Under the pieces are notes generated by a model that was not told the DNA's origin, made no database searches, and saw only the letters and a program-made list of their open reading frames with translations. Below, piece after piece: positions 12,147 to 32,011 of a DNA stretch of 64,000 bases. The DNA is from a virus, in the IMG/VR virus record IMGVR_UViG_3300031992_000005, positions 32,001-96,000 of that record; one strand, 5' to 3'. Every line of letters begins with the position of its first letter. Positions within the stretch are counted from its first letter, which is position 1. The position numbers and the translations under genes were made by a program.

Positions 12147-13727
12147 TTATCTCAGTTGCGCAATAGCATTTTTCATGCGCTTAATGGTTTCTTCCTTGCC
12201 AAGAAAAGCTGCCAACTCATACATATCAGGTCCCTGTCCTGTTCCCACCAAGCAAACACGCCAAGCGTTCCAAGGCTTGAATCCATGTGCCTCCGTCCAT
12301 GCTTCAATCATTTTCTTCAGACTTTCAACAGAGAAGTCATCAAGTGATTCGAGCACACCAATAAGCTCATCCATCTCCATAGCAGTTGTTTCTTTCCAGT
12401 TCTTGCGGACAAACTTATCTTCCTTGTTGTATATTTCAGGAGTTACAAAGAAGAACTTAGTCAGCGGCCAAAGGTCACTGATGAAGCTTACATTCCTCTT
12501 CTTCTTGTTGCCGTCGTTGTCAACATATTCAATCACTTTCTGTTTCATCATCTCCACGACTTGCGCTTCCTGCTGAGGCGTGGATTCAATGCCATTAGCA
12601 CGAAGAATCTTATTAAATTCAGGAACCCACTCCTCCGCTGGCTTTTTGAGTATATACTGGTGATTGAACCAAATGCTCTTCATGTAGTCAAAATGCGCAC
12701 CACACTTTGAGCACTTACTGAGATCGAACCTCTCAATAAGTTCATCCATCGACATTAATTCCTGGTCGTTACCTGGATTCCAACCAAAGAGAGCCAAGAA
12801 ATTGACTAATGCCTCTGGCAGGTAGCCTTTTTCACGATAGCCTGGACTAACCTCTCCCGACTTAGGGTCGTGCCATTCAAGAGGGAACACAGGAAATCCC
12901 AGTTTATCGCCATCGCGCTTTGAGAGTTTTCCATTACCCATACCCACTGGCTTGAGAATCAATGGTAAATGAGCAAAGCGTGGCATTGTGTTCTGCCAAC
13001 CAAATGCTTCATAGAGCAGCACGTGAAGTGGAGCCGAAGGCAACCATTCCTCACCACGAATAACGTGGGAAATCTTCATTAAGTGGTCATCCACAATGTT
13101 TGCCAAGTGATAAGTAGGCAATTCATCAGCACTCTTGTAGAGTACCTTGTCGTCGAGGATACTGCTGTTAATGCTTACATCGCCACGAATCAAGTCATCC
13201 ACATGCACATCACGTCCTGGCTCAATCTTAAAACGAACCACATACTGTTTGCCGTCAGCAATCAGTGCATCCACTTCTTCCTTACTGAGAGTGAGAGAAT
13301 TACGCATCATCATGCGGGTTTTGGCATCGTATTGGAAGTTCTCTATTTCCTGACGCTTAGCATCAAGTTCCTCGGGTGTGTCGAAAGCAAGATAAGCTTT
13401 GCCATCGTCAAGCAACTGCTGTACATATTTCTTATAGATGTCACGGCGTTCACTTTGGCGATATGGGCCATAGTTGCCACCAAAGGAAACACCTTCATCG
13501 AATTTGATTCCTAACCAATTGAACGACTCAATGATATACTCTTCAGCTCCTGGAACAAAACGATTGGAATCGGTGTCTTCGATACGGAAAATCAAGTCAC
13601 CACCATGTTGTTTTGCGAACAAGTAATTGTAGAGAGCTGTGCGAACCCCACCAATGTGCAGAGGTCCTGTTGGGCTGGGTGCAAAACGCACTCTTACCTT
13701 ATTAAATTCATTTGTTTTTGTTACCAT
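12147..13727 (-). CDS. gltX: glutamyl-tRNA synthetase (class I)
   Basis: [17 protein letters not shown] (HIGH motif), [21 protein letters not shown] and GKLSKRDG (KMSKS motif). Full length at 526 aa. Visibly higher GC than its neighbours. Confidence 0.95.
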
Positions 13728-13779
13728 TTTTATTATTAATTAAACAATATAACATTCAAGTATAAAGAGTTTAAAGCTT
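13691..13779 (-). repeat. promoter/leader/first-codons module, copy B
   Basis: Matches 12014..12108. It supplies the ATG and MVTKTNEF in front of the native GluRS N-terminus ([12 protein letters not shown]). Confidence 0.85.
13753..13779 (-). promoter_or_regulatory. promoter-like motif
   Basis: The minus strand reads AAGCTTTAAACTCTTTATACTTGAATG, the duplicate of the 12082 box. Confidence 0.45.
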
Positions 13780-13832
13780 CAGGACCTCAAGCCCTTACAG
13801 GTGTATATAATTAATATTAAAAAGATTAGACT

Positions 13833-14423
13833 ATGAAATGGGAATGGTATGAAGTAACAACTGAAGTCTTAAAAGAAGCTTTGGAGTTTTATAGCAAGCC
13901 TGAAGAAGACTGGATCAAAGATGTAGTTATTGAAGTCCAAAATCCAGCTAGCTTAATAAATTCAAGAGTATATCTTACTGCAGTGCCACCAGATAAGATG
14001 GATAAAAAATTGGCAGAAGTAGCAAAAATGATTTCAGTTATTGTTGTTAACCCAGGAGAAAAGTTTGCCAGAGTTACATTAACGCCAATGAATCAATTTT
14101 TTGGTAGTAGTTGCTTAGAGAAACTTTTCGGAAATGTGTATAAGCCACATGAACGTAGCTATCTAAATTTTCTCAAACAGAAAAAGATAGAAGGTGAATC
14201 TTTTGAGAAATATCTCAATAGGATGTGGTATATATTCTGTAACGATGAACGAGTACGGGTCGGAATCGGAGAAGAGGATATTTATAACCCTAATGAGAAA
14301 TTCGTTAGAATTAGGCCTATATACTACGACACTTGGTTAGACTTGATGAAATTATATACAGAAACAGGAAACATTAAATACCTTATACCTGAACAAGATA
14401 TTAAAATTTTTAAAGTTAAATGA
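13833..14423 (+). CDS. hypothetical protein (196 aa)
   Basis: Intact ORF, first gene of a short plus-strand block. No motif recognised. Confidence 0.6.
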   Translation: MKWEWYEVTTEVLKEALEFYSKPEEDWIKDVVIEVQNPASLINSRVYLTAVPPDKMDKKLAEVAKMISVIVVNPGEKFARVTLTPMNQFFGSSCLEKLFGNVYKPHERSYLNFLKQKKIEGESFEKYLNRMWYIFCNDERVRVGIGEEDIYNPNEKFVRIRPIYYDTWLDLMKLYTETGNIKYLIPEQDIKIFKVK

Positions 14424-14887
14424 GTAAACATTTCAGAGGTATATTTTTAAATGTATACTTACTAGAAGCAGATATAGTCCGATATTTAGAGGGTAAAGGC
14501 TATAAAATTATTACATTAAATACCGCGATAAAGACTTTTTGCAACTTAAAGGATACCATTGATGTAAGACCTTTCTTAAGTTCTTCTACTAGGTATATGA
14601 AACTCTGTTATAAAACAGAAGAGGATTATCTTCACTTAAGAGATATGGTAGAACTACTCTTTAGTGGAGTAATAGGAGAGGTTAAAACGTGGTTAGATAT
14701 TAAAGAACCTAAACCAAATTTAACTATTAATATCAACTATATCAGTACTGGATTTCTATTTACTGAAGAAAATGGCAGTTTCTATGACCACGTTGCCCTT
14801 AAGGTAGGTAAAAAGTTATTGAAAGAAAATTTAAAAAAGATATTAACATATGAAAAAGGCGAAAACGGCAATAATATTTTTTCATAG
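14420..14887 (+). CDS. hypothetical protein (155 aa)
   Basis: ATGA overlap with the upstream stop. No motif recognised. Confidence 0.55.
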   Translation: MSKHFRGIFLNVYLLEADIVRYLEGKGYKIITLNTAIKTFCNLKDTIDVRPFLSSSTRYMKLCYKTEEDYLHLRDMVELLFSGVIGEVKTWLDIKEPKPNLTININYISTGFLFTEENGSFYDHVALKVGKKLLKENLKKILTYEKGENGNNIFS

Positions 14888-15782
14888 ATCAGACTACGAT
14901 GGCCTATTTTCAGGCTTTATCGCAAAGTCTAAGTTACAAGAAGACGGATACCTAGTTACATCAATAGGCTGGACTTATGGAATGCCTATTCCAAAAGAAT
15001 TAAAACAACGGACATGGGATGTTGTAGTAGTAGTTGACTTGAGTTTTCCACCAGAAATAATGGATAGTATTGAAAACCTGGTTTGGATAGATCACCATGA
15101 TACTTCCATTAAAGATAGTAAACCTTTCAAATACTTCTTCTCTCCCGGAAAAAGAGTATTAGGTAAAGGTGCTTGTGAATTAGCTTGGGAATATTTCTAC
15201 CCAGAGATTGAAGTGCCATTATCTATACAATATCTGAGTGCATATGATGTACATGATATGAAAAGATTTGACTGGCAAGAAAAATCTCTACCACTACAGT
15301 ATGCATTGAAGGCGATGTACGGTAACTCTAAGGATCCGTTGTTTGAAGAATTTGTAAATCTAACCAACCCAGGTAATCTTAATAGGGTGGATGAGTTAAT
15401 AGAAACCGGAAAAATAGTTTTGCAATATGCAAGACGAATGGCTGAGATAGCTGTAAAGAATTACGGTTTCGTAGTAACTGTAAATGAAAAATATAGCGGA
15501 TTATGTATAATCACTACTGATTTCAAGGCGTCTTTGTATACTGAGCTAATGATTGATAAATATGATATCTTAGTTCTAGTTAACAGAAAAAGATCCTCAC
15601 CAGAAGATATATTTATAGTGGGCTTTTATTCTGAGGAAGGAAAACTTGACTTCTCTTTAGGTGATTATGCAAAAGAAATTGTTAAAGGAACTGGAAGAAA
15701 CGGAGGTGGTCATAAGTGTGCCTCTGGTTGTGAAATAGATAAGGAACAGTTCCTAAAACTAATTAGTAGTAAAAAAATATAA
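14850..15782 (+). CDS. DHH/DHHA1-family phosphoesterase (NrnA/RecJ-like core)
   Basis: Collinear DHH motifs: FFHRSDYDG (I), VVVVDLS (II), WIDHHDT (III), and DHHA1 GGGHKCASG near the C-terminus. Confidence 0.8.
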   Translation: MKKAKTAIIFFHRSDYDGLFSGFIAKSKLQEDGYLVTSIGWTYGMPIPKELKQRTWDVVVVVDLSFPPEIMDSIENLVWIDHHDTSIKDSKPFKYFFSPGKRVLGKGACELAWEYFYPEIEVPLSIQYLSAYDVHDMKRFDWQEKSLPLQYALKAMYGNSKDPLFEEFVNLTNPGNLNRVDELIETGKIVLQYARRMAEIAVKNYGFVVTVNEKYSGLCIITTDFKASLYTELMIDKYDILVLVNRKRSSPEDIFIVGFYSEEGKLDFSLGDYAKEIVKGTGRNGGGHKCASGCEIDKEQFLKLISSKKI

Positions 15783-18053: not shown

Positions 18054-18228
18054 AGCAATTGACTCTATCTCTGGAAAATTGGTATCTTGGCCGATAATAG
18101 TAGTGCTAGTATCTATTGCGCACTATTGTTTTGCGGCAATGCATTTCCTATTTGAAACTTATCTTTATCTCTTCAATAGAGATCAGTTTGAATTAAATAT
18201 GGTATCCTTAAGCAAGAGGTTAGCATGA
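17977..18228 (+). CDS. small membrane protein (start uncertain)
   Basis: Hydrophobic core SWPIIVVLVSIAHYCFAAMHFLF and an ATGA overlap with the next ORF. It overlaps the upstream gene by 50-77 nt depending on the start chosen. Confidence 0.4.
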   Translation: MKYSRLLKIMLEKEKIHWRRLKNLFKAIDSISGKLVSWPIIVVLVSIAHYCFAAMHFLFETYLYLFNRDQFELNMVSLSKRLA

Positions 18229-18380
18229 AAAAGACTAGTTTCTGGCATAACCTTCTTAGGGGAATGATATACCTCCTGGTATGCAAAGGCATATTTTGGT
18301 TAATGCCTTTTCAAGATGCCATAGTACTTATCTCTGCGATAGTAATATGTAATTTGGATCTCATAAATGAGAAAAAATAA
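18225..18380 (+). CDS. small membrane protein (51 aa, below ORF-track cutoff)
   Basis: Translated by hand as MKKTSFWHNLLRGMIYLLVCKGIFWLMPFQDAIVLISAIVICNLDLINEKK. Starts in an ATGA overlap and is followed by a terminator. Confidence 0.5.
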   Translation: MKKTSFWHNLLRGMIYLLVCKGIFWLMPFQDAIVLISAIVICNLDLINEKK

Positions 18381-18390
18381 AAAAGAAAGA

Positions 18391-18421
18391 ATAGAGCCCG
18401 AAAGGACTCTATTTTTTTTTG
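18391..18421. terminator. intrinsic terminator (GAAA-looped hairpin plus T9)
   Basis: ATAGAGCCC-GAAA-GGACTCTAT followed by TTTTTTTTT. An A/T-rich run upstream allows action on the minus strand too. Confidence 0.7.
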
Positions 18422-18591
18422 TCTCCAAAGATTAAACGTTTATTTTAAAAGCTTTAGTTCTAATTCACCGTTTCCGCCTGAGGTTCTATACATACATATG
18501 TATAGATTACCTGGCATCTTCAGTACGAGCTTCACCCGTATACGATTTATCAGACCTAAAGTGTTAAAATTGTTTCTATAAAGGTTACAAA

Positions 18592-18640
18592 TAAGAAAAG
18601 AGAACCTTAACTGAAATTGTTGTGTGTGTTAAAGTTCTCT
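18592..18640 (-). terminator. candidate terminator for the 58-aa minus-strand ORF
   Basis: Imperfect ~11-bp hairpin (18600-18611 pairs with 18628-18639), followed on the minus strand by TTTTCTTATTT. Confidence 0.4.
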
Positions 18641-18648
18641 TCTCTCCA

Positions 18649-18825
18649 TTAGAGTTTGTCTGTCACCGTTTTCAGGTGAAACAAACAGTACGTTGTCATC
18701 AAGAACCAGATACCAATTGAAATCTGGTTCTCACAGAATGGCCGGTAATCGGCCAAAAGAAGTGCTAATCCAAAAAACATTCCTATGAAGGAAATAATTC
18801 GGATTATTTTAACTAATTTTTTCAT
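18649..18825 (-). CDS. small two-TM membrane protein (58 aa, below ORF-track cutoff)
   Basis: Translated codon by codon as MKKLVKIIRIISFIGMFFGLALLLADYRPFCENQISIGIWFLMTTYCLFHLKTVTDKL, with two clear hydrophobic helices. Confidence 0.5.
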   Translation of the reverse strand: MKKLVKIIRIISFIGMFFGLALLLADYRPFCENQISIGIWFLMTTYCLFHLKTVTDKL

Positions 18826-18829
18826 GTCG

Positions 18830-19480
18830 CTAATTTTTTTTTGTTATAATTTCTATAAATAGGTTACCTATATCTTCTCTATATAGGATTTATGATCTCC
18901 GATTATAGTTCACTGTGAGTATTTTTCTATTTATACTCTGACCTCTTCGGTCTTTAGATTCCTATAATAGTCAGGCTGTAACCTAACCACCGGATATCAC
19001 GCTCTATTACTTCAATGATTTGGATTTACAGATCCTCCTCATCTTTTCATAGTTCCTCAGGACGTCCTGAGTACTGCGCTTTGATCGAGACCCTGCCAAA
19101 GATTCTTCATCTTCAGGTTTCTCGTCCCGTAGATAATCTCTTCGATTATCCAAAATTTTGTATAAAAATTATTTTAAAATACCCCAAACGTACCTCAATA
19201 TTTGTGGGTACTGCGGGGTATGTGTCTATAAATAATAGTGTTATTGTCTTCTTTAACACTTTAACCTTTTATACGCTCTGAGCCAATACATCAATCGGGT
19301 ATAACAACTTCCCTTTTTCCCAATCTCCTGGTAAGATTGATGCGCTATGCTATTTTCTGTTCGCTCAGACGAACCCAAGTACTATCTATCTTGGCTGTCC
19401 TTATATAGGTCCCCCATAGCCACCTTCAGTATGCCTATATAAGTTAGTAGTATACGTTTCAACTACATAGTATCGGTATA
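18830..19480. ncRNA. ORF-free, hairpin-dense island; candidate large structured RNA or long leader (strand unresolved)
   Basis: About 650 nt with no convincing ORF and locally raised GC. Perfect hairpins include 18867-18887, 18940-18952, 19056-19071, 19132-19150 and a two-tier one at 19182-19218. Bounded by a palindromic promoter-like box at 19498. Confidence 0.3.
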
Positions 19481-19497
19481 TATTTATTCATATATAA

Positions 19498-19511
19498 CCT
19501 TATATATAAGG
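19498..19511. promoter_or_regulatory. perfect 14-nt palindrome CCTTATATATAAGG (promoter-core-like on both strands)
   Basis: Read directly. It contains the CCTTATATA core of the recurrent promoter motif in both orientations. Confidence 0.4.
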
Positions 19512-19686
19512 CTTTCACCAGATAACAAAAAGGAAAAAAATTTCGGTCTATTTCCTTAAGAATGTACTAAAATTATGAATATTATGAGAAAATTAGTGAA
19601 TTTTAACATGGGAACGCTATTATTAATAAATTTTTTAGTAATGGCAGTTATTACATTAGTGAGACTTGGTTATCGGATCGCTGAAA

Positions 19687-20271
19687 ATGGATATTAAAAT
19701 TTGGGATGGAGGCTATTTTTATAGTTTTGTGGGGAAATACTATCCCCAACTAGACTATAAAACTGAGTTTGAACAATCTACAGATCCTATTGGTACGGAT
19801 CCAAATCTCCCTATTCTTGATTTCAAAGAACGTATCCTATTAGTTGCGCCTGATGTTAAAACGGGTGACATAATGAAGTTTAGTTCTACTAGAATTCTAC
19901 TTAGTAAATGTAGGAAGAAGTATAATGTGGTCGAGCAGGTGCATATTGTACATGAGTATTTTTACCCTTTTAATAAGATAATAGCTAAACTTCCACTCTA
20001 CATGAGGTATTGCTATATCTTCGGAGATAAGAATCAAGTCCTGGAAGAATATAAAGATATTCTAAAAAGAAGCTACCAAAAAACCTTATCACAACAAGTA
20101 GTGAAAACTACGGTACTAGAAGCGATTAAAAGTACCATCGAAGAGTATTCTAAAGTGGGTACGAGAATTGTTATAATAAGTGCAGAAAGAGATCAAGAGC
20201 ATTCTTTTAAGAGTGTTCTAGTGAATTCTTTGAGAGAGAATGGAATAATTGTGGAAAAATTATGGGATTAG
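19687..20271 (+). CDS. hypothetical protein (194 aa; first ATG used)
   Basis: The ORF track starts at a non-ATG codon (19666). The first ATG is at 19687 (MDIKIWDGG...). Confidence 0.55.
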   Translation: MDIKIWDGGYFYSFVGKYYPQLDYKTEFEQSTDPIGTDPNLPILDFKERILLVAPDVKTGDIMKFSSTRILLSKCRKKYNVVEQVHIVHEYFYPFNKIIAKLPLYMRYCYIFGDKNQVLEEYKDILKRSYQKTLSQQVVKTTVLEAIKSTIEEYSKVGTRIVIISAERDQEHSFKSVLVNSLRENGIIVEKLWD

Positions 20272-20781: not shown

Positions 20782-20991
20782 TTACGTATCTCTTGTAAGT
20801 ATTGTCCAGAATATGGCTACTATTAATACGATCATTACTATAGGCCATAGCCATAGCATGAAAAACTTCAAGATACGCTCTAAGAGTTTATTCTTGAAAG
20901 TAATTCTCCTAGTAAGATTATATTCCTGTAGGGTCATAAATCCTACTATCAAGTAGCAAATTACTATAAATGTAATTTCAATGTAACCCAT
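20782..20991 (-). CDS. small two-TM membrane protein (69 aa)
   Basis: Two hydrophobic helices. Overlaps the upstream gene by 14 nt. Confidence 0.55.
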   Translation of the reverse strand: MGYIEITFIVICYLIVGFMTLQEYNLTRRITFKNKLLERILKFFMLWLWPIVMIVLIVAIFWTILTRDT

Positions 20992-22471
20992 AAAACGCCT
21001 TTCTAATTTTTATTAATATATCATCTACTACAGATTTGTCAATTTCATCAGGGAGAGATGAATTAGCCATAGCCTGTTTCATCTCCTCGTCTTTACTTTC
21101 TAAGAATTTCATAAGATCATCATATACGACATTACCTTCTCGAATATTCATCAAGAATTCTCTATCGATATTTCTTCGATCTAATTTCATGCCTTCTCCT
21201 TTGGCGATCTCAATTCCCATTGTTAAGAGTCTAGCACTATGACAAGCATTTTTCAGGTCATAATGTCCTTTCTTTGCGAGATTAAATCTCTCTTCATTAT
21301 GATGCTTATTCCAGTCATTGTATTCATGATACTGCTTACAATAGTTCGAGTAGCCATCTTTATTATAAGATACATCAATGAGAGGCAACTCACCTTTCGG
21401 AATGGAGCTTAGTCTTACTTGATTACTAGTATCAGCCAAGTTAACTAATCCCTTATAGCCAAAAGGCTTTTTATATCTCTCCCAAGTGAGATGAATGAAA
21501 TCTCCTTCATCATATGCCCCGAATAATGTAAAAGCATTTACGAATAGTAATTTCCAGAATGGATCAATATCTTGGAAATTCTCCGTGAACGTATTGGAGA
21601 ATTTTGGCAAATGTTCTGCAAATTCTTCTTCTGTTGTAATACCAATATCCTTAAGATGTGCTCCCCAGTCATAGTACATGCTATACATGCAGTTCATTCC
21701 GTCCAGGTTAACTAATCCACAGAATTCCTGCTTCAATTTATTGAAACCTAGGTAATCGACAACCTTCTTAACATCACCGTCAACTGCATATAAGATATAC
21801 TCTAGACAGCTCTTAAGTGGACCTGTCATAGGTTGAGTAATTTTCTTCTTTAGATCCCTAGCTCTTTCAATCTGAGTCTTAGCATATCCTAAGAATGAAT
21901 GGAAGCATTTCTTAGTGATAAACCTATCTCTTTCCTGTAAGATAATATCCATTAATGGATGTTTATAAAGAATTTTATCTTCAGGAACAAATAAAGACTC
22001 TAAGACATTTGGATTTGATTTAAGCAAGAGGAGAAGAAATTTTTTGAGACTAAACCAAGACTCATTATTATCCCGAGTATTAATATCCTCTGGAAAATCC
22101 AGTCCTGTTCCAAAACAGATTTCCATAGGTTCAATGAATACTCCGCCATGATCTTCATCGCTTTCTGGCCTATCTAAGCCATATAAACGACTACCACGTA
22201 TATATTCATATAACAAGAACCCATTTTTTCTAATGTAATCAAATTCAAAATGATCTAATGAATAGTCATCCTGAATAGCTACATTAGTAGTACAGAATTC
22301 ACTATTAATTTCTATTGTATAAACTTTACCAACTTCTACTATGAAAGTTTTTTCAAGTAAGTCGATAACAGTTCCTACCATTCTCCAACACCATCTATGC
22401 TGAAGAATTATTAAGGTTGACCCTTTTTCAATAGTCTTTCCATAAAAGTCTACAAATTTCATTTTTTCCAT
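20978..22471 (-). CDS. pol-beta-superfamily nucleotidyltransferase-like protein (497 aa)
   Basis: IRGSRLYGLDRPESDEDHGGVFI fits the GS-x(9-10)-[DE]xD minimal nucleotidyltransferase motif (the 'predicted nucleotidyltransferase' type seen in phages). Confidence 0.55.
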   Translation of the reverse strand: MEKMKFVDFYGKTIEKGSTLIILQHRWCWRMVGTVIDLLEKTFIVEVGKVYTIEINSEFCTTNVAIQDDYSLDHFEFDYIRKNGFLLYEYIRGSRLYGLDRPESDEDHGGVFIEPMEICFGTGLDFPEDINTRDNNESWFSLKKFLLLLLKSNPNVLESLFVPEDKILYKHPLMDIILQERDRFITKKCFHSFLGYAKTQIERARDLKKKITQPMTGPLKSCLEYILYAVDGDVKKVVDYLGFNKLKQEFCGLVNLDGMNCMYSMYYDWGAHLKDIGITTEEEFAEHLPKFSNTFTENFQDIDPFWKLLFVNAFTLFGAYDEGDFIHLTWERYKKPFGYKGLVNLADTSNQVRLSSIPKGELPLIDVSYNKDGYSNYCKQYHEYNDWNKHHNEERFNLAKKGHYDLKNACHSARLLTMGIEIAKGEGMKLDRRNIDREFLMNIREGNVVYDDLMKFLESKDEEMKQAMANSSLPDEIDKSVVDDILIKIRKAFYGLH

Positions 22472-22510
22472 AAAAATATATTTATTAAATACATATTTAA
22501 GGGAATAATG

Positions 22511-22541
22511 TCCCCTTAAATTCTTATTTATATATGATAAC
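22511..22541 (+). promoter_or_regulatory. promoter-like motif on the strand opposite to both flanking genes
   Basis: TCCCCTTAAATTCTTATTTATATATGATAAC closely matches the boxes at 8924(-) and 35636(+). Confidence 0.45.
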
Positions 22542-22617
22542 GAATTTAATTGTCAGTTTCAGTTTCGTTTGCTTAATTTTAGTGGTGGCTTATTATCTAT
22601 CCAAGAATGGAAGGTAA
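22534..22617 (+). CDS. possible 27-aa hydrophobic micropeptide (or non-coding sRNA body)
   Basis: Hand translation gives MITNLIVSFSFVCLILVVAYYLSKNGR. The ATG lies inside the promoter-like box, so coding status is doubtful. Confidence 0.2.
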   Translation: MITNLIVSFSFVCLILVVAYYLSKNGR

Positions 22618-22634
22618 TAAGCCTTTCTTTTTTG
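22587..22634 (+). terminator. intrinsic terminator of the orphan plus-strand unit
   Basis: Perfect 9-bp stem GGCTTATTA/TAATAAGCC (22587-22595 with 22615-22623) followed by TTTCTTTTTT. Confidence 0.6.
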
Positions 22635-22698
22635 TTCAAAAAAAAAATAAGAAGGGAACAACCTAATCTCTAGGTCCCTCCCCTCCTTACTATAAACT

Positions 22699-23964
22699 TT
22701 AGGAAAATATCTTATTTTCTAACTGGATGCTTGATCCGATATTGTCTCCATTCCTACTCTGAATGAAAGTCAATAGGCCGAGCTTCTTTAATCCAAGCAA
22801 AACTACTGCTGCAAAATCCTTTGGATATACACTTTGAATTACTGAAGCAAGTCCCCCAGACAGTTCTGCATCTAAAACTCTCAGAGACAAATTGGCTGTC
22901 TTTTCTGCAAATAACAGTATTGCATTCATTATACCTAACCAAGCCACAATCTTATTGAAGTTAAAGGTTGGACTCAAGAATCTAAATTCTACAGTCTTAT
23001 TAATCCTATAACACAATAAGTTGACTAAGTTCATCCAGTAATATCTGGTAGGTATTCTCCATTTTGCCTCACGAGTAATATCACGTGGATGTGGTTGTGT
23101 GAAACTACCCATGTAATTCTTACCCACCAGGTATGCATATAGTGCATTGAAATTTGGCAGAGAATCTATACTAGGCAATTTCTTACAGTAATCCTTGCCA
23201 GTAGCCTTATACTCTGAACTTCTAAATGCCAGAGGTGGAAGAATAGTCGATAATTCGCATTCTAGCTTCTTACAAACTCGATAGAGATTATAGACTACTT
23301 CTGGTACCATAGGGTAACCCCCCAGGTGAACATGCAGAGAACATTCCTTATTAAAGATGGTATATTCATTCAGGGTATCTACTTGTTGACGAAGGAGATT
23401 AATTCCCTCATTTCCAGAAAGAACCACGGTTGAATATTCCAATCCACCGATAGATCCATCTCTTAGTGGAATAAGACCGTCTCTGAAACAGAGGTGTTCT
23501 GGAATATATCCACCACTTGTCTCAAACTCAAGACCAAAGGTATACTTGAGATATTTAGACAGTTCATAGAAGTCTATCTTTAATAGCTTCTGCTTATCCT
23601 TGAAAATGTCAAAGCTTTCTACAGCCTCATATTTTCTGACGAATCTCTGATAAGGATATCTACCATTTCCATAAGTGAATCTCTCACGAAGATAACCTTC
23701 CTGCGAAAAATCTACAAATTTACTGAAATAAACACCTTGTAAGTTACTGTAGAAAATCTTATCCTTCACCAGCTCATAGCAAGCATTTACTGTTCTGAGA
23801 GAATGTGGGTCTTTGTCGTAATCAATCAACATTAATTGAATGATAGATGCTCTATCCGCTACATATCCGTATATTATGTGGCCATCTTTTAAGAGATCAA
23901 CCACCACTGACATACATCTTCCTTTATTCTCTAGATTTCCAGTATAACTATCTACTACTTTCAT
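22699..23964 (-). CDS. glutamine-synthetase-fold amidoligase (Amidoligase_2-like)
   Basis: GLEFETSGG ... LRDGSIGGLEYSTVVLSG ... CSLHVHLGG ... EFRF follows the E.E / DGS..E / HVH pattern of predicted COOH-NH2 amidoligases. Sits in an operon with two GATases. Confidence 0.6.
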   Translation of the reverse strand: MKVVDSYTGNLENKGRCMSVVVDLLKDGHIIYGYVADRASIIQLMLIDYDKDPHSLRTVNACYELVKDKIFYSNLQGVYFSKFVDFSQEGYLRERFTYGNGRYPYQRFVRKYEAVESFDIFKDKQKLLKIDFYELSKYLKYTFGLEFETSGGYIPEHLCFRDGLIPLRDGSIGGLEYSTVVLSGNEGINLLRQQVDTLNEYTIFNKECSLHVHLGGYPMVPEVVYNLYRVCKKLECELSTILPPLAFRSSEYKATGKDYCKKLPSIDSLPNFNALYAYLVGKNYMGSFTQPHPRDITREAKWRIPTRYYWMNLVNLLCYRINKTVEFRFLSPTFNFNKIVAWLGIMNAILLFAEKTANLSLRVLDAELSGGLASVIQSVYPKDFAAVVLLGLKKLGLLTFIQSRNGDNIGSSIQLENKIFS

Positions 23965-23970
23965 GTTACT

Positions 23971-25392
23971 TTAACCTTTAAATAAGCGAGCAACAAGCGT
24001 TGCTATCTCTGATTTCGTAAATTGTTGATTTGCTTCAACGGCTTTAAATGGTTTACTATACTGTTGACCATAACAAGTCGTTACCAAAGAGCCGTCCCTA
24101 TAGGACTTGGAAAATCCTTCACCCAATCTCTGAATGTGCCCTGTAAAAGGTACCGTCTTAGATCCTTCAACAACTTGGTGAACAATATTCTTGTCATCTA
24201 TGTAGAAAGGCTCTAAGCTGAGATATCTAATCAAGTAGCAATTCTTGATTAAGAAATCCTTGACAGAGGCACAGGTCTTTTTTCTTTGCACGGAAACTTC
24301 TTCCTCGTGTGTTATATATTTCCAGCACCTCTTATTTAAGAGTGGAATTCCGTTATAAAACCAAACTGAATGGGTTGTACAGTTTTTATCTTTTCCAAGA
24401 TCTGCCTCAGGAATTACTCTACCATAAATTGTGAGGTTATACTTACCATTCATAGGTACACCCCTCAATTGATAGGTGAAGTTCTCCATTGCTCTTATGT
24501 AATTAGACTGATGATATACACCATCACTATCATAATAGCCATTATAGACATGAGTATTTCCAAAGGCAGTGGTACCAACACCATTAAAACCAACGGTAGG
24601 TACTCCTCCCCCACTATAATATGTGGCTTTATATGGTTTCGTTTGGATAGCTTTATCTCTACTATAAACTCCAAGATCCACTAATCCATCCTCAGCTGTA
24701 TAAGACATTAAGTGATTTCCGTCAATGGTATATACCTTTTGTCCTCTTCTAAGGGCATCGAGATATTTACCTATTGATGAGAATACAATCTCATCTTCCG
24801 AATCATCAAAAGTCATATACAAAGGTCTTTCTTCCTCAGGCTTTACCGAATATTCTGTTCTCTTAGATATTCCCTTGAAGAACAGACACTTAGGGCTATC
24901 TACTCGATAGTCAATGATTACAAATACACTACCGCCATTATATTCTGACAGTACGTCATATCCCTTGTAATAGAAGATCCTGGCCATGACTTGTGAATCA
25001 GTCATGTCATCTATCTTAATGTTTGGGATATACTTTTGAGCAAGTTCTTTGTAATTATAGATTGTACCGTTATGAAGAACTACAAATCTGATTCTTCCAG
25101 ACTTATCCTTCAAAACAACAGGCTGAGCAGTTCTTTCATTGATGGCACCAACAGATGCTTTTCTACAATGTCCAACTGCTATCGTAGACTCTTTTTTATT
25201 TTTCAGAATCTTACTTTCAGTGAAGAAGTCTTGAAACAGCTTATTATCTCTAACGCCGTATTCATATTCTCCATCGATGAAGATTCCACACGAATCTCCG
25301 CCTCGGGAATCATTGTTGACCCCGAGTACAGAGAATGTAGAATAGTCGAATGCCCGTTTTTTCCTATTTATTATTCCGAAAAGTCCGCACAT
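23971..25392 (-). CDS. class II (Ntn) glutamine amidotransferase domain protein with large C-terminal extension
   Basis: The N-terminus MCGLFGI has the Cys2 nucleophile, followed by NNDSRGGDSCGI, GHCRKAS and LHNGTIYN, typical of PurF/GlmS/AsnB-type GATase domains. Confidence 0.8.
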   Translation of the reverse strand: MCGLFGIINRKKRAFDYSTFSVLGVNNDSRGGDSCGIFIDGEYEYGVRDNKLFQDFFTESKILKNKKESTIAVGHCRKASVGAINERTAQPVVLKDKSGRIRFVVLHNGTIYNYKELAQKYIPNIKIDDMTDSQVMARIFYYKGYDVLSEYNGGSVFVIIDYRVDSPKCLFFKGISKRTEYSVKPEEERPLYMTFDDSEDEIVFSSIGKYLDALRRGQKVYTIDGNHLMSYTAEDGLVDLGVYSRDKAIQTKPYKATYYSGGGVPTVGFNGVGTTAFGNTHVYNGYYDSDGVYHQSNYIRAMENFTYQLRGVPMNGKYNLTIYGRVIPEADLGKDKNCTTHSVWFYNGIPLLNKRCWKYITHEEEVSVQRKKTCASVKDFLIKNCYLIRYLSLEPFYIDDKNIVHQVVEGSKTVPFTGHIQRLGEGFSKSYRDGSLVTTCYGQQYSKPFKAVEANQQFTKSEIATLVARLFKG

Positions 25393-26198
25393 GTTATTTC
25401 TTCTTCTAAGATATAGAACTTTCTAATTAATTCTTTTGCTTTTTCTGCATCACTATTATTAATAGCGACGATAGTATCCTCATACAAAGGAATATTCGAG
25501 CAACTATTATAAGCATTGATTGCTCTCATAACCTGATGGAACACAAACTTAATTGTTTTACTGTTCTTCATCATAGCGCTGGATAATACTCGATACTCAA
25601 CGCCATAATCGGTTAATCTGAAAGCTCCTGCCTTACCATACAGCGATCTTCTCCGAGTATCGGTATCAATAATCACTGATGGTAGTCCTACGAATGCATC
25701 CAGGTACTTTACAAGACACACTGAATCCTCGATATTAGGATTTTCATATCCAATATGCACATGGAATCCTGCTGATCTTAAGCAGGTATTCGTTCCCTTT
25801 GGCTTTGGATTTTCATTCTCAGTGTATGCATTGTAGTCAGGAGAGCACCCAAATAGTTTTGCCAATGGGTGTCTCAGCTGCGTCTTTGGTACCATTTCAC
25901 TTGCAGAACATTTGATTTCCAAATTTGGATCAATGTTCTTGATGTAAGTTGTAATATACTTTTTCATGTAATTGATGTTGTTAAGGAAAGCCAGTTCGCT
26001 AGTAACTGGTGGGATATTGAATTCGGCTAAGATATTATCTATCTCCAATCCAAATCCTTTTGGCATGTCCTCACCAACCCAAGGATTTCCTTTTTCTCCT
26101 GGAATAATACCGATAGCTGATACTACTGGCTTATCGGTTTTTGCACCGTTTACCAGGAACAACTCGGGATCTGCCCCAATTGTAACTTGACTAATCAT
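25371..26198 (-). CDS. phiEco32-like COOH-NH2 ligase type 2 (second amidoligase)
   Basis: IGADPELFLV at the N-terminus, GLEIDNILAEFNIPP and GFHVHIGY resemble the phage COOH-NH2 ligase family. Adjacent to both GATases. Confidence 0.55.
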   Translation of the reverse strand: MISQVTIGADPELFLVNGAKTDKPVVSAIGIIPGEKGNPWVGEDMPKGFGLEIDNILAEFNIPPVTSELAFLNNINYMKKYITTYIKNIDPNLEIKCSASEMVPKTQLRHPLAKLFGCSPDYNAYTENENPKPKGTNTCLRSAGFHVHIGYENPNIEDSVCLVKYLDAFVGLPSVIIDTDTRRRSLYGKAGAFRLTDYGVEYRVLSSAMMKNSKTIKFVFHQVMRAINAYNSCSNIPLYEDTIVAINNSDAEKAKELIRKFYILEEEITCADFSE

Positions 26199-26850
26199 TG
26201 TTCTTTTCCTCCTTTAATTTGATTTGTACAAGCTGACTTTCGATCAATTCGTTCAACATCTTCACCACTGGCTCAGTATCTCTCATAATCTCTGGATGAC
26301 CTTGAATTGCAAGGCATCTTGGATTTCCAGGCTTGGTATAAAGCACTACTTCAGGCTCCACCTTGATTGAATGAACATCAATCTTATCGCCTGCATAATA
26401 ACTGCTAATAGCATTTGCCCAATAGAGGATCTTGTATTCGTTACCAGGTAGATCAAATGGATACTGCATCTGATGATGAGTCGATGTGATCTGATAAGCA
26501 ACACTGCCATTTGTGATCTCATGTGTTCCGTATCTTGCATGACGATCACAATCCTGAATCAACTTACCTCCGTTCATAACGCAGAGGAACTGAGATCCAC
26601 GGCAAATACCAACTGCCAACTGACTTGGTTTGATCGAATCGAACACCTTCTTTTCTGCAGAGTCTCTACCCGCACTGTAATGCGTAGTCGAATGTGCCTG
26701 ACAGCCATAGAGAGATGGATTTACGTCTTCTCCACCAGTGAAAAGCACTACATCTGCATTCTTGATGTCCTTCACCAATTCATGATTGTTAATGAAATTC
26801 GCATAATAGGTTGAACCACCTACTACAAAAACTTTAATCTTCTTTTCCAT
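26191..26850 (-). CDS. class I glutamine amidotransferase / gamma-glutamyl hydrolase-like (peptidase C26-like)
   Basis: Nucleophile elbow GICRGSQFL and catalytic IQGHPE, on a Rossmann-like N-terminus (KVFVVGGS). Confidence 0.75.
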   Translation of the reverse strand: MEKKIKVFVVGGSTYYANFINNHELVKDIKNADVVLFTGGEDVNPSLYGCQAHSTTHYSAGRDSAEKKVFDSIKPSQLAVGICRGSQFLCVMNGGKLIQDCDRHARYGTHEITNGSVAYQITSTHHQMQYPFDLPGNEYKILYWANAISSYYAGDKIDVHSIKVEPEVVLYTKPGNPRCLAIQGHPEIMRDTEPVVKMLNELIESQLVQIKLKEEKNND

Positions 26851-26855
26851 AAAGT

Positions 26856-27695
26856 TTACTTTGATTTAAGAAATTTTTTTGAAATTTTATCTAATATTTC
26901 TCTGTAAACAGAGAATCGTACTTCTCTTTCTTCGCGATTTTCCAGGAATTCTTGTAAATCTCCAGGAAACGCGACAGATGATTTTTTTATTTCACTCAAC
27001 ATTACAAAATCACTTTTTGATAAAGCATGATTTGATGTATATGTTGTAAAAACATTGTTTAATCTACAATTGTCGTATTCGTTTATAAGGTATTCAAGGC
27101 TTGTCTTAATACACCTATTGTTACGATAAATTGGACTATTCGATGAGGGATCAATAAGACTATGTAATTCAAATTCACAAGTACGTCTCGATCCAACATC
27201 AGACACTGTTCTATTCAACAGTGATATCATATTGATTAAACTGACAAACGAATACTTGGGATTATTCTTATGAGCTTTTATAAACTCATGAGCCTCAAAT
27301 AGTAAGAGGTTGTATGGGAATTCATACAGTAGCCTAGTCCAGGCTAGTATGAACTTGTGGTATAATTTTCTACCACCTACATGAAATGCAATTCTAACAT
27401 ATTTATGATTTTGCCATGTATAATCCCCTACCAGTACTTTTGACTCTTTACCTATCAGCTTGAGCCCAAGTTTTACATAGTTCCTAATGAAAGTCTTATC
27501 AAATGGGGCAAAATTGCTATAATGATTTTTCTTTATAGATTCATTTGTCGTATCGACAAGAATTCTATATGTAGAATCAAGCTCACTCTCCGGACTATTA
27601 AAGATGGTTCCGAAGCATGCATGACTATGAAAATTCTTATCTTCTTCTCCTATACAATAAATTGTACGATAACTAATGCATCTCCAATAACTCAT
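26856..27695 (-). CDS. hypothetical protein, paralogue of 27702..28610
   Basis: Shares YHKFILAWTRLLYEFPYNLLLFEAHEF..HKNNPKY with AHKYALFYLRRAYEFPFNMILMDVYRIRRNNPKL in its neighbour. Confidence 0.6.
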   Translation of the reverse strand: MSYWRCISYRTIYCIGEEDKNFHSHACFGTIFNSPESELDSTYRILVDTTNESIKKNHYSNFAPFDKTFIRNYVKLGLKLIGKESKVLVGDYTWQNHKYVRIAFHVGGRKLYHKFILAWTRLLYEFPYNLLLFEAHEFIKAHKNNPKYSFVSLINMISLLNRTVSDVGSRRTCEFELHSLIDPSSNSPIYRNNRCIKTSLEYLINEYDNCRLNNVFTTYTSNHALSKSDFVMLSEIKKSSVAFPGDLQEFLENREEREVRFSVYREILDKISKKFLKSK

Positions 27696-31376: not shown

Positions 31377-32011
31377 TCGAAATCATTTTCTATTTCTTCA
31401 TATAATAAGTCTTCTTCAATTTCAACAGGATCTTCTACTGAAGGTTGAGGAAATTTTTTATTCTTTTTCTCTATGGCATTTTTTCCATTTCCCCACCTAA
31501 AGTTGAGCCAACCGTAGTATTCACCTTCATCCCACTTATAATTTTCAGGAACTTCTCCAGGTTTTCTGAATACACTGTCCATGAATAAAAGATTTCCTGT
31601 CTTATGAGGATAAGAGTAATTTTCTAAACCAACTCCTCCCACTTCAACCGGTTTATTTAGCTTAAAGTCTAGGACTAAATATCCCCACCAGTAATGATCC
31701 TTGTCATAAATATAGTTTTTATTGTATATATTATCACATATACAGTACAATCCAGTATTAGAAGACCTTGCCGTTTTCTCCCGATACCCATCTTTATTAA
31801 CTTTGTTAAGAACAGATATATTCTCATCAGGGCGTCTTACATCTTGATAAATTTCTTTTATCATTTCAATATCAGGCTTAAGCTCTTCTAGGGTATCTGC
31901 CTCAAACCTAGATTCCTTGATCCAACGAGAAGGCATCTTAAATATGTCTACTCCCCATTCTTGGGCTATTAAGACATATCTTTTAGTGTGTTCAAATGCT
32001 TTCCAATTCAT
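31358..32011 (-). CDS. hypothetical protein (217 aa)
   Basis: Intact ORF, W/Y-rich, with an acidic C-terminus. Confidence 0.6.
   Translation of the reverse strand: MNWKAFEHTKRYVLIAQEWGVDIFKMPSRWIKESRFEADTLEELKPDIEMIKEIYQDVRRPDENISVLNKVNKDGYREKTARSSNTGLYCICDNIYNKNYIYDKDHYWWGYLVLDFKLNKPVEVGGVGLENYSYPHKTGNLLFMDSVFRKPGEVPENYKWDEGEYYGWLNFRWGNGKNAIEKKNKKFPQPSVEDPVEIEEDLLYEEIENDFDKKRRD

Follow-up and report, generated by a model that had tools for sequence, protein, structure and literature searches.

The window considered in the current analysis is a stretch of 64,000 nucleotides of viral DNA (positions 32,001 to 96,000 of the IMG/VR record IMGVR_UViG_3300031992_000005). It is part of a giant phage-like contig encoding a topoisomerase II subunit, an HNH endonuclease, an RlaP nucleotidyltransferase, GluRS and a DHH phosphoesterase; the same protein is found in source contigs of 0.2-1 Mb. 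Between a minus-strand gene for a protein of 58 residues and plus-strand genes for proteins of 37 to 40 and 194 residues, the window contains a gene-free island (18830-19480) that holds a single copy of the element described here. Comparison with its relatives indicates that the island encodes a large structured RNA that belongs to a hitherto undescribed family and has a fold under strong purifying selection.

The island had been pointed out in a reading of the sequence alone as a region free of open reading frames (ORFs) and packed with perfect hairpins, and all the stems listed there have been found again (Table 1). The motif TCTTC (GAAGA in the RNA) said to be shared by three of the loops does occur three times as a pentaloop; the pentaloop at 19099-19113 had been overlooked, and the loop at 18874-18880 is the heptaloop AGAGAAG. 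The raised G+C content noted for the island holds with respect to the immediate flanks (38% in the RNA and 30-32% in the flanks), though the coding stretches of the window run at 33-38%. With dinucleotide shuffles as the control, folding yields z-scores of -7.3 (minus strand) and -4.8 (plus strand).

The island is non-coding, as had been proposed: TAA, TAG and TGA are each present in all six frames, and the 88-residue plus-strand ORF that had been suspected of being spurious is not kept in relatives. The presence of all three stop codons in every frame, together with the lack of a conserved open frame, also excludes a protein gene hidden by a reassigned stop codon, which could be considered since some giant gut phages reassign stops (Lak phages are alternatively coded according to PMC8346664). 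A self-splicing intron or mobile ribozyme would likewise be a large structured RNA. No gene is interrupted here, no intron-encoded protein is seen adjoining the island, the element has a promoter motif of its own, and no Rfam intron or ribozyme family matches it above chance level. As far as the tools used can tell, the probability of either of these two explanations is negligible.

The adjoining 194-residue protein led to the close relatives L002 and L003 (99% identical), L005 and L006. The island is 96-100% identical in most 50-nt bins of L005 and L006, where the adjoining protein is only 86% and 73% identical; the high synonymous divergence of the neighbourhood shows the island to be under selection at almost every base. 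Distant relatives have been identified by DNA pattern scans, by look-ups of neighbouring genes and by reading the gene-free gaps of related phage loci. The same RNA has been found in about 30 contigs of IMG/VR and public metagenome assemblies, most of which are phage-like and of 100-425 kb, and its length is 550-620 nt.

Ten sequence types (A-J) have been distinguished, and the RNA recurs in no fewer than ten giant-phage lineages, all of them uncultured. Type A comprises the window, L002, L003, L005 and L006, and type B comprises L016 (contig of 204 kb) and part of L007. Type C is represented by L015 (contig of 319 kb), where the RNA was recognised by eye in a gene-free gap, and type D by L045 and L046, the latter being a 371-kb contig binned as a Mycoplasmatota metagenome-assembled genome. 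L048 and L052 belong to type E, L049 to type F, L050 to type G, L051 and L053 to type H, 15 IMG/VR contigs of up to 350 kb to type I and L070 to type J. L007 (1-260) encodes exactly the same 193-residue protein as L006, yet the 5' part of its RNA is of type B and not of type A, with the switch near window position 19440, which points to recombination within the RNA gene or beside it.

No relatives were obtained from IMG/VR with the two flanking proteins, and an exact 20-mer of the 5' block has no match in IMG/VR. The loci of RlaP and DHH homologues are not syntenic with the window, and neither BLAST nor nhmmer gave a homologue in them. Twenty matches to a 16-base pattern are due to chance, none being confirmed by the covariance model, and L017, L047, L054 and L068 are also chance matches. 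Besides the small ORF described below, no neighbouring gene is constant across the RNA loci.

Fold and covariation of the RNA

The hand alignment is made up of seven sequences of four types (A-D), with helices picked by eye, and the control was provided by sliding the helix partners by 1-3 bases. When types A-D are compared helix by helix, 18 helices form in all four, and with P2 included 426 of the 434 pairs are standard despite the differences in sequence. The 126 helix positions of the hand alignment are 98.7% paired (33-40% after sliding), with both-sided change at 89 of them as against 17-23 in the control. Since these helices had been chosen by eye, the count was repeated on MAFFT alignments made without regard to structure. 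With seven sequences and 75 pairs, 85.7% are paired (30-45% after sliding) and both-sided change is seen in 40 (7-15); with 11 sequences and 108 pairs the corresponding values are 83.0% (36-44%) and 84 (28-39). The covariation score in the 11-sequence alignment is 0.53 and at most 0.15 in the controls, and the observed value of every measure was reached by none of 500 shuffles. Covariation among relatives is evident in the hand alignment and in the alignments based on sequence only.

A covariance model built from types B-I, with type A excluded, identifies the window at 19349-19474 on the minus strand with a score of 73.8 bits (E = 1.2e-13) and finds nothing in unrelated loci. The suggestion of a large structured RNA, possibly also serving as a long leader of the small ORF, made from the window sequence, is borne out by the retention of the helices through compensatory changes in ten sequence types.

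The comparisons support a predicted fold of at least 18 conserved helices, organised into a 5' domain (P2-P6) locked by the pseudoknot PK1, a central pentaloop domain, the hairpin P11, a three-way junction and the hairpin P18. In the 5' domain P3, P4 and P5 are present in all of types A-D and P2 in three of them, type D having a different hairpin at its place; each of these helices shows both-sided change. PK1 is 93% paired and five of its six pairs have changed on both sides, the variants of loop and partner being UCUGAG/CUCAGA, UCAGGG/CCCUGA, ACUUGG/CCAAGU, UUAGGG/CCCUAA, UGCCGG/CCGGCA and GCUUGG/CCGAGC.

In the central domain P9, P10, P10a and P10b form in types A-D, and P9 has undergone two independent double substitutions among the close relatives. 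The pentaloops are always GNNNA, with the letters differing from type to type (GAAGA, GAAAA, GAGGA, GGAGA, GAUAA and GACGA) while their stems covary. The apex of P11 is self-complementary in all ten types (ACGU, GUAC, UAUA, GAUC or AUAU), and its stem, 92% paired, has changed on both sides at six of six pairs. Certain loops are invariant across types, namely UGAAAC, AAGGUGG..GGG, AAGUUGUUAUA, CUGUAW, UACAG and AGAGAAR. The region at 19152-19271 is restricted to type A, and even between close relatives no other part is less conserved.

Two proposals for pairing have been dropped. Long-range helices between the 5' and 3' parts (CCGAU/AUCGG and others), which appear in folds of one or three sequences, are not kept in types B-D and have been replaced by the three-way junction. 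A helix P7 (GCGU with GCGC) does not covary, is mismatched in types C and D and is not counted.

Table 1. Positions in the window of the RNA, its helices and the accompanying features; paired segments are separated by a slash, and the fourth column gives the corresponding element of the sequence-only reading.
Feature	Position	Strand	Sequence-only reading	Remarks
Palindromic box CCTTATATATAAGG	19498-19511	both	palindromic promoter-like box	two overlapping divergent copies of promoter-like motif CCTTATATAT
Motif copy, minus strand	19511-19502	-		upstream of the RNA
Motif copy, plus strand	19498-19507	+		upstream of the 37/40-residue and 194-residue genes
5' hairpin UAUAUA/UAUAUA	19477-19496	-		between promoter and conserved core; varies with lineage
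Structured RNA core, ~610 nt	18867-19476 (approximate ends)	-		folding z-score, covariation, covariance-model match
P2	19466-19462 / 19451-19447	-		loop UGAAACGUAU
P3	19443-19434 / 19409-19400	-		conserved 24-nt loop AUACUGAAGGUGGCU..GGGGGA
P4	19394-19390 / 19379-19375	-
P5	19374-19370 / 19363-19359	-	stem GTTCG/CGAAC, found at 19359-19374	100% paired in 11 sequences
PK1	19369-19364 (UCUGAG) / 19282-19277 (CUCAGA)	-		P5 loop with segment just 5' of conserved GCGU
P6	19342-19335 / 19296-19289	-	long-range pair CATCAATC/GATTGATG, found at 19289-19342	sequences differ in all four hand-compared types (A-D) and still pair
P6b	19313-19311 / 19299-19297	-		carried by P6; nearly invariant loop AAGUUGUUAUA (19310-19300)
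Variable region	19152-19271	-	two-tier hairpin, 19182-19218	hairpin 19260-19237 and long two-tier hairpin 19236-19169
P9	19151-19144 / 19138-19131	-	GATAATC-TCTTC-GATTATC, 19132-19150	pentaloop GAAGA
P10	19124-19120 / 19090-19086	-
P10a	19117-19114 / 19095-19092	-
P10b	19113-19109 / 19103-19099	-		pentaloop GAAGA
P11 hairpin	19056-19071	-	16-nt palindrome	whole 16-mer palindromic; four apical bases ACGU here
P12	19043-19039 / 19018-19014	-
P12b	19035-19032 / 19025-19022	-		conserved loop CUGUAA
Three-way junction P13/P14/P15	18894-18998	-		near-identical junction spacings in types A-D
P13	18998-18991 / 18901-18894	-
P14	18988-18982 / 18975-18969	-		loop UUACAG; 84% paired
P15	18968-18962 / 18908-18902	-		91% paired
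P16	18952-18949 / 18943-18940	-	GACC-TCTTC-GGTC, 18940-18952	inside P15; pentaloop GAAGA
P17	18938-18933 / 18922-18917	-		inside P15; specific to type A
P18 hairpin CCUAUAU/AUAUAGG	18867-18887	-	stem CCTATAT/ATATAGG	conserved loop AGAGAAG; 95% paired; 6 of 7 pairs changed on both sides
UAUAACAA	18841-18848	-		candidate partner of the P6b loop (19307-19300) in the long-range pairing PK2; 15 nt upstream of AUG
58-residue protein gene	18649-18825	-	membrane ORF at one edge	two hydrophobic segments; co-oriented with the RNA
Hairpin followed by U-rich run	18594-18645	-	terminators at the same edge	likely terminator of the unit; equivalents beyond the small ORF of types B, C and D

Strand and transcription unit

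Among the proposed pairs 82 are G-U when read on the minus strand and 33 when read on the opposite strand. Eight one-sided changes among the close relatives exchange G-U with A-U or G-C on the minus strand and give mismatches on the plus strand. The GC skew and AT skew over the island have the sign of minus-strand genes, and the minus strand also carries the promoter, the small ORF, the terminator and, in type D, a co-oriented tRNA. On account of the G-U excess, the wobble-only changes, the base skew and the orientation of these features, the strand, which the sequence-only reading had left undecided, can now be assigned, and the RNA appears to be transcribed from the minus strand, from about 19476 to about 18867. 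That the family is one of structured RNAs encoded on this strand is almost certain.

The count of G-U pairs, favouring one strand, is also relevant to the proposal that the island is a replication origin, a packaging site or some other protein-binding array that makes use of the TCTTC repeats and palindromes. The island does lie between divergently arranged genes and contains several palindromes, and the cumulative GC skew has its peak at about 18150-18450, some 0.4 kb below it; the change in skew, though, coincides with the change in gene orientation. Iteron-like direct repeats are absent, with only short two-copy chance repeats present, and it is the stems that covary while the letters of the loops vary. 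The retention of a pseudoknot and of long-range helices would have no meaning for duplex DNA. Such an element at the level of DNA is highly improbable.

The order of the unit does not differ between types. It begins with a promoter-like motif and a 5' hairpin that varies, and after the RNA an A-rich spacer of 40-115 nt leads up to the AUG of the small ORF. A terminator-like hairpin follows the small ORF in types A-D, the types in which the sequence was read further. The hairpin at this position in the window is not called by the consensus terminator scan. No terminator is found between the RNA and the gene of the 58-residue protein, and no alternation of terminator and anti-terminator is seen.

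The palindromic box at the other edge of the island, taken in the earlier reading to be promoter-like, is made up of two back-to-back copies of a phage promoter-like motif, so that one copy would serve the RNA and the other the plus-strand genes. Ahead of the RNA, types A-H have the motif (A)AAGCCTTATATAT(G/A), and types I and J have CCTTATTAGTG in its place; similar motifs are present just upstream of other genes of the window, and a promoter role is inferred for them. At the position of the 5' hairpin other types have UUACCUAAAG and a long hairpin. Type D additionally has a tRNA between promoter and RNA (L046:7309-7377, minus strand; L045:796-864, plus strand), which scores 43 bits with the Rfam tRNA model and is not called by ARAGORN.

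The ORF of 58 residues, described earlier as a membrane ORF at the edge of the island, is a real gene, as its differences among relatives are in-frame indels and mostly synonymous changes. In each of the 11 copies examined, which represent all ten types, the RNA is succeeded by a small ORF (48-126 residues) that has a hydrophobic segment. The proteins differ from type to type and have one or two such segments. They match no Pfam or PHROG family, and none is related to OapA. The comparison of these loci points firmly to a minus-strand element that works at the level of RNA and has genetic coupling to a gene for a small membrane protein.

The nearly invariant loop of P6b could pair with the leader of the small gene. 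Types A, B, C, D and H have a complement of this loop 13-17 nt ahead of the AUG, and in B and C the two have changed in step. In relation to the regions upstream of 214 other genes a combined p of 7e-4 is obtained, the types not being independent of each other. The motif UAACAA is not a general gene-start signal in the phage of the window. In types I and J (L067 and L070) ACAUAUUAACAAU, complementary to the conserved P6b loop, occurs about 15-25 nt before several consecutive small hydrophobic ORFs 3' of the RNA, which may hint at pairing of the loop in trans with these sites.

An alternative is a giant cis-acting leader, in which the 610-nt fold would act as a sensor or timer (of a ligand, temperature, a protein or co-transcriptional folding) solely for the translation or stability of the mRNA of the small membrane protein, for example a lysis, exclusion or toxic peptide. 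The small hydrophobic ORF is always directly 3' of the RNA on the same strand with no terminator between, and the most conserved loop, P6b, is complementary to the segment before the AUG in five types. The RNA is, however, far more conserved than the ORF, whose place is taken by unrelated small proteins in different types. The distance from the RNA to the AUG is variable, and the complement of P6b is 53 nt away from the AUG in type E and 5 nt in type G. The tRNA in the type D unit is as expected for a gene of stable RNA, and the lack of a terminator/anti-terminator alternative also speaks against a leader. We know of no regulatory leader of 550-620 nt with at least 18 helices and a pseudoknot. 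A leader of this kind is considered to be unlikely.

Comparison with known RNAs and possible mode of action

Elaborate conserved RNAs of about 600 nt are, to our knowledge, very rare in bacteria and phages; setting aside ribosomal RNA, RNase P RNA and self-splicing introns, we know mainly of OLE, GOLLD and ROOL. Recent cryo-EM work has revealed that all three assemble, unexpectedly, into dimers and cages made of RNA only, and their functions remain unknown.

The sequence-only reading had suggested a scan with Rfam and mentioned GOLLD and ROOL, which are apt as analogies, though the element matches neither of the two models. No match was found with Rfam 15 at the gathering score in the whole window, and at E up to 10 a 1.5-kb slice of it gave matches at chance level only, the best being the Pistol ribozyme with 19.1 bits (E = 1.1) against a gathering score of 34.5. 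In the loci of types B-H the only matches at the gathering score are the tRNA in type D and another 1.9 kb downstream of the RNA in L048 (type E). ROOL, GOLLD and OLE were not found at E up to 1 in the loci of types B, C and D or at E up to 10 in short slices of those of types D, E and G, and these scans identified no riboswitch, leader, intron or ribozyme family above chance level. No tRNA was found in the window or in the loci of types B, C, F and H. BLAST against 50,697 GenBank phage records gave nothing, a single 38-nt match for type I being spurious, and the literature searches gave no description of the family. Judged by these comparisons, the RNA is a new class of large structured phage RNA, within a wider category (ornate large RNAs of unknown function) that has precedents.

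ROOL and GOLLD are phage-encoded, are located near tRNAs and contain several pseudoknots; ROOL was first seen in rumen samples and its function is unknown (PMC12286853). ROOL (RF03087) shares with the new RNA a length of about 600 nt and many helices with pseudoknots. It occurs in phages or prophages and often near tRNAs; the new RNA is found in giant phage-like contigs, with a tRNA adjoining it in type D and 1.9 kb away in type E. The new RNA differs in that it has no match to the ROOL model and no recognised motif in common with ROOL, and in that a gene for a small membrane protein is invariably found behind it. GOLLD (RF01998) is likewise a large ornate phage RNA of unknown function that sits near tRNAs, but it is longer than 800 nt and of another architecture, and the new RNA does not match its model. 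The multimers of GOLLD form through loop-loop and A-minor contacts (PMC12286853).

OLE (RF01071) resembles the new RNA in its length of about 600 nt, its high degree of structure and the membrane-protein gene downstream. The oapA gene is most often directly downstream of ole. Its product, a membrane protein, has palindromic binding sites in OLE RNA and brings this RNA to the membrane; OLE RNA dimerises (PMC12265935, PMC12286853). The always palindromic tip of P11 recalls the palindromic OapA sites. In contrast to the new RNA, OLE is chromosomal, is found in Bacillota and belongs to a large operon; there is no match to its model, and the small proteins encoded in the new units are shorter, with one hydrophobic segment or two; they vary by type and belong to no known family.

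The short stems with GNNNA pentaloops are also reminiscent of the boxB elements in the nut sites of lambdoid phages, which are recognised by N protein. GAAGA and GAAAA are the loops of the left and right boxB of lambda and fold like GNRA tetraloops. Here the pentaloops are three spokes of one large conserved fold and not isolated leader sites, and no boxA or N-like protein has been identified. It is more likely that the pentaloops are elements of tertiary contact than sites of the boxB kind.

The size of the RNA, its pseudoknot, the GNRA-like pentaloops and the invariant loops argue for a compact RNA particle rather than a switch, and that it acts in trans as a particle is somewhat more probable than that it is purely a leader. 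The transcript would start from the minus-strand motif copy, run through the RNA into the gene for the 58-residue protein and end at the hairpin beyond it. The RNA would fold into a particle of the ROOL, GOLLD or OLE kind, in which the pentaloops and invariant loops may provide tertiary contacts or contacts between copies, and the self-complementary tip of P11 may allow two copies to pair symmetrically or a dimeric partner to bind. The co-encoded membrane protein might be the partner that holds the RNA at the membrane, as OapA does for OLE RNA, and pairing of the P6b loop with the leader about 15 nt before the AUG could tie the translation of the protein to the fold of the RNA. As a whole, this explanation, a new RNA family forming a ROOL-, GOLLD- or OLE-like particle with a co-encoded membrane protein, is given about an even chance; the partnership between the RNA and the membrane protein can be proposed tentatively and is the less probable part.

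Several observations weigh against this explanation. The four-base tip of P11 cannot form a kissing contact as such, and a dimer would need the hairpin to be opened into an intermolecular duplex. The counts of covariation, being made on related sequences, overstate the number of independent events. A hydrophobic window is present in 35% of all the small ORFs of these AT-rich genomes. The downstream proteins are not recognisably homologous between types, so that a specific partnership of RNA and protein would have to re-evolve or to depend on generic features. The support for pairing between P6b and the leader is statistically modest, and UAACAAU precedes a few other small ORFs in type I phages.

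If the small ORF is an incidental neighbour sharing only promoter and terminator, the RNA could be free-standing and form an RNA-only multimer like those of ROOL and GOLLD. Its size, complexity, pseudoknot, phage origin and vicinity to tRNAs (in type D and near type E) resemble these RNAs (PMC12286853), and the tip of P11 and the three GNRA-like pentaloops suit contacts between copies. The hydrophobic segment in all the downstream ORFs, well above the background frequency, the lack of a terminator ahead of them and the absence of any Rfam match to ROOL or GOLLD are not in favour of it, and its probability is low, similar to that of the leader.

In its most far-reaching form the particle explanation would have the RNA as a fourth class of ornate large RNAs, specific to giant phages of the gut and rumen, a symmetric multimer built through P11, anchored to the host membrane by the small protein and altering the host as an OLE-like particle or ribozyme. 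This is somewhat unlikely; if true, the virus would supply the cell that it infects with an OLE-like membrane RNA particle or ribozyme of its own. What is new here is the family itself and not a demonstrated new mechanism. A further unrelated class provides an independent case for asking what such large RNAs do, and the fixed genetic partner makes the question testable, with one RNA, one small protein and one promoter. A large RNA would also join the known tool set of giant phages.

Surrounding genes and other gene-free segments

Genes for the RlaP nucleotidyltransferase, an amidoligase and a glutamine amidotransferase are present around the RNA unit (window 20978-27695 and 12147-15782), with those of GluRS and the DHH phosphoesterase also near it. 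The nearly identical locus of L002 adds a COOH-NH2 ligase and a peptidase C26 gene. In types B and C a gene similar to CCA-adding enzyme or poly(A) polymerase and a gene for RNA 2'-phosphotransferase are found within 13 kb of the RNA, and L012, in which the RNA was not seen, has RtcB. This content looks like that of an RNA-repair or tRNA-maintenance neighbourhood, the arrangement of which is not conserved.

The hydrophobic ORF of 37 to 40 residues at 19575-19697 on the plus strand, just before the gene of the 194-residue protein, is conserved, and L002, L005 and L006 all have a gene call for it. The plus-strand half of the palindromic box is its probable promoter.

A gene-free segment of about 1 kb in the 424-kb phage contig L012 (4301-5274) is richer in G and C than the adjoining genes and has no match to the new RNA family. 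Directly 3' of the type C unit, L015 has a gene-free region of about 700 nt (2040-2777), which contains a G+C-rich segment and a promoter-like CCCTTATATGTAGG at about 2705 and may hold another RNA. The window itself has a second conserved non-coding stretch (18420-18590), with a plus-strand terminator (18390-18419) on one side and that of the RNA unit on the other. The hairpin at about 18497-18520 in this stretch (CTATACATA..TATGTATAG) has a different sequence in L005, where it still forms.

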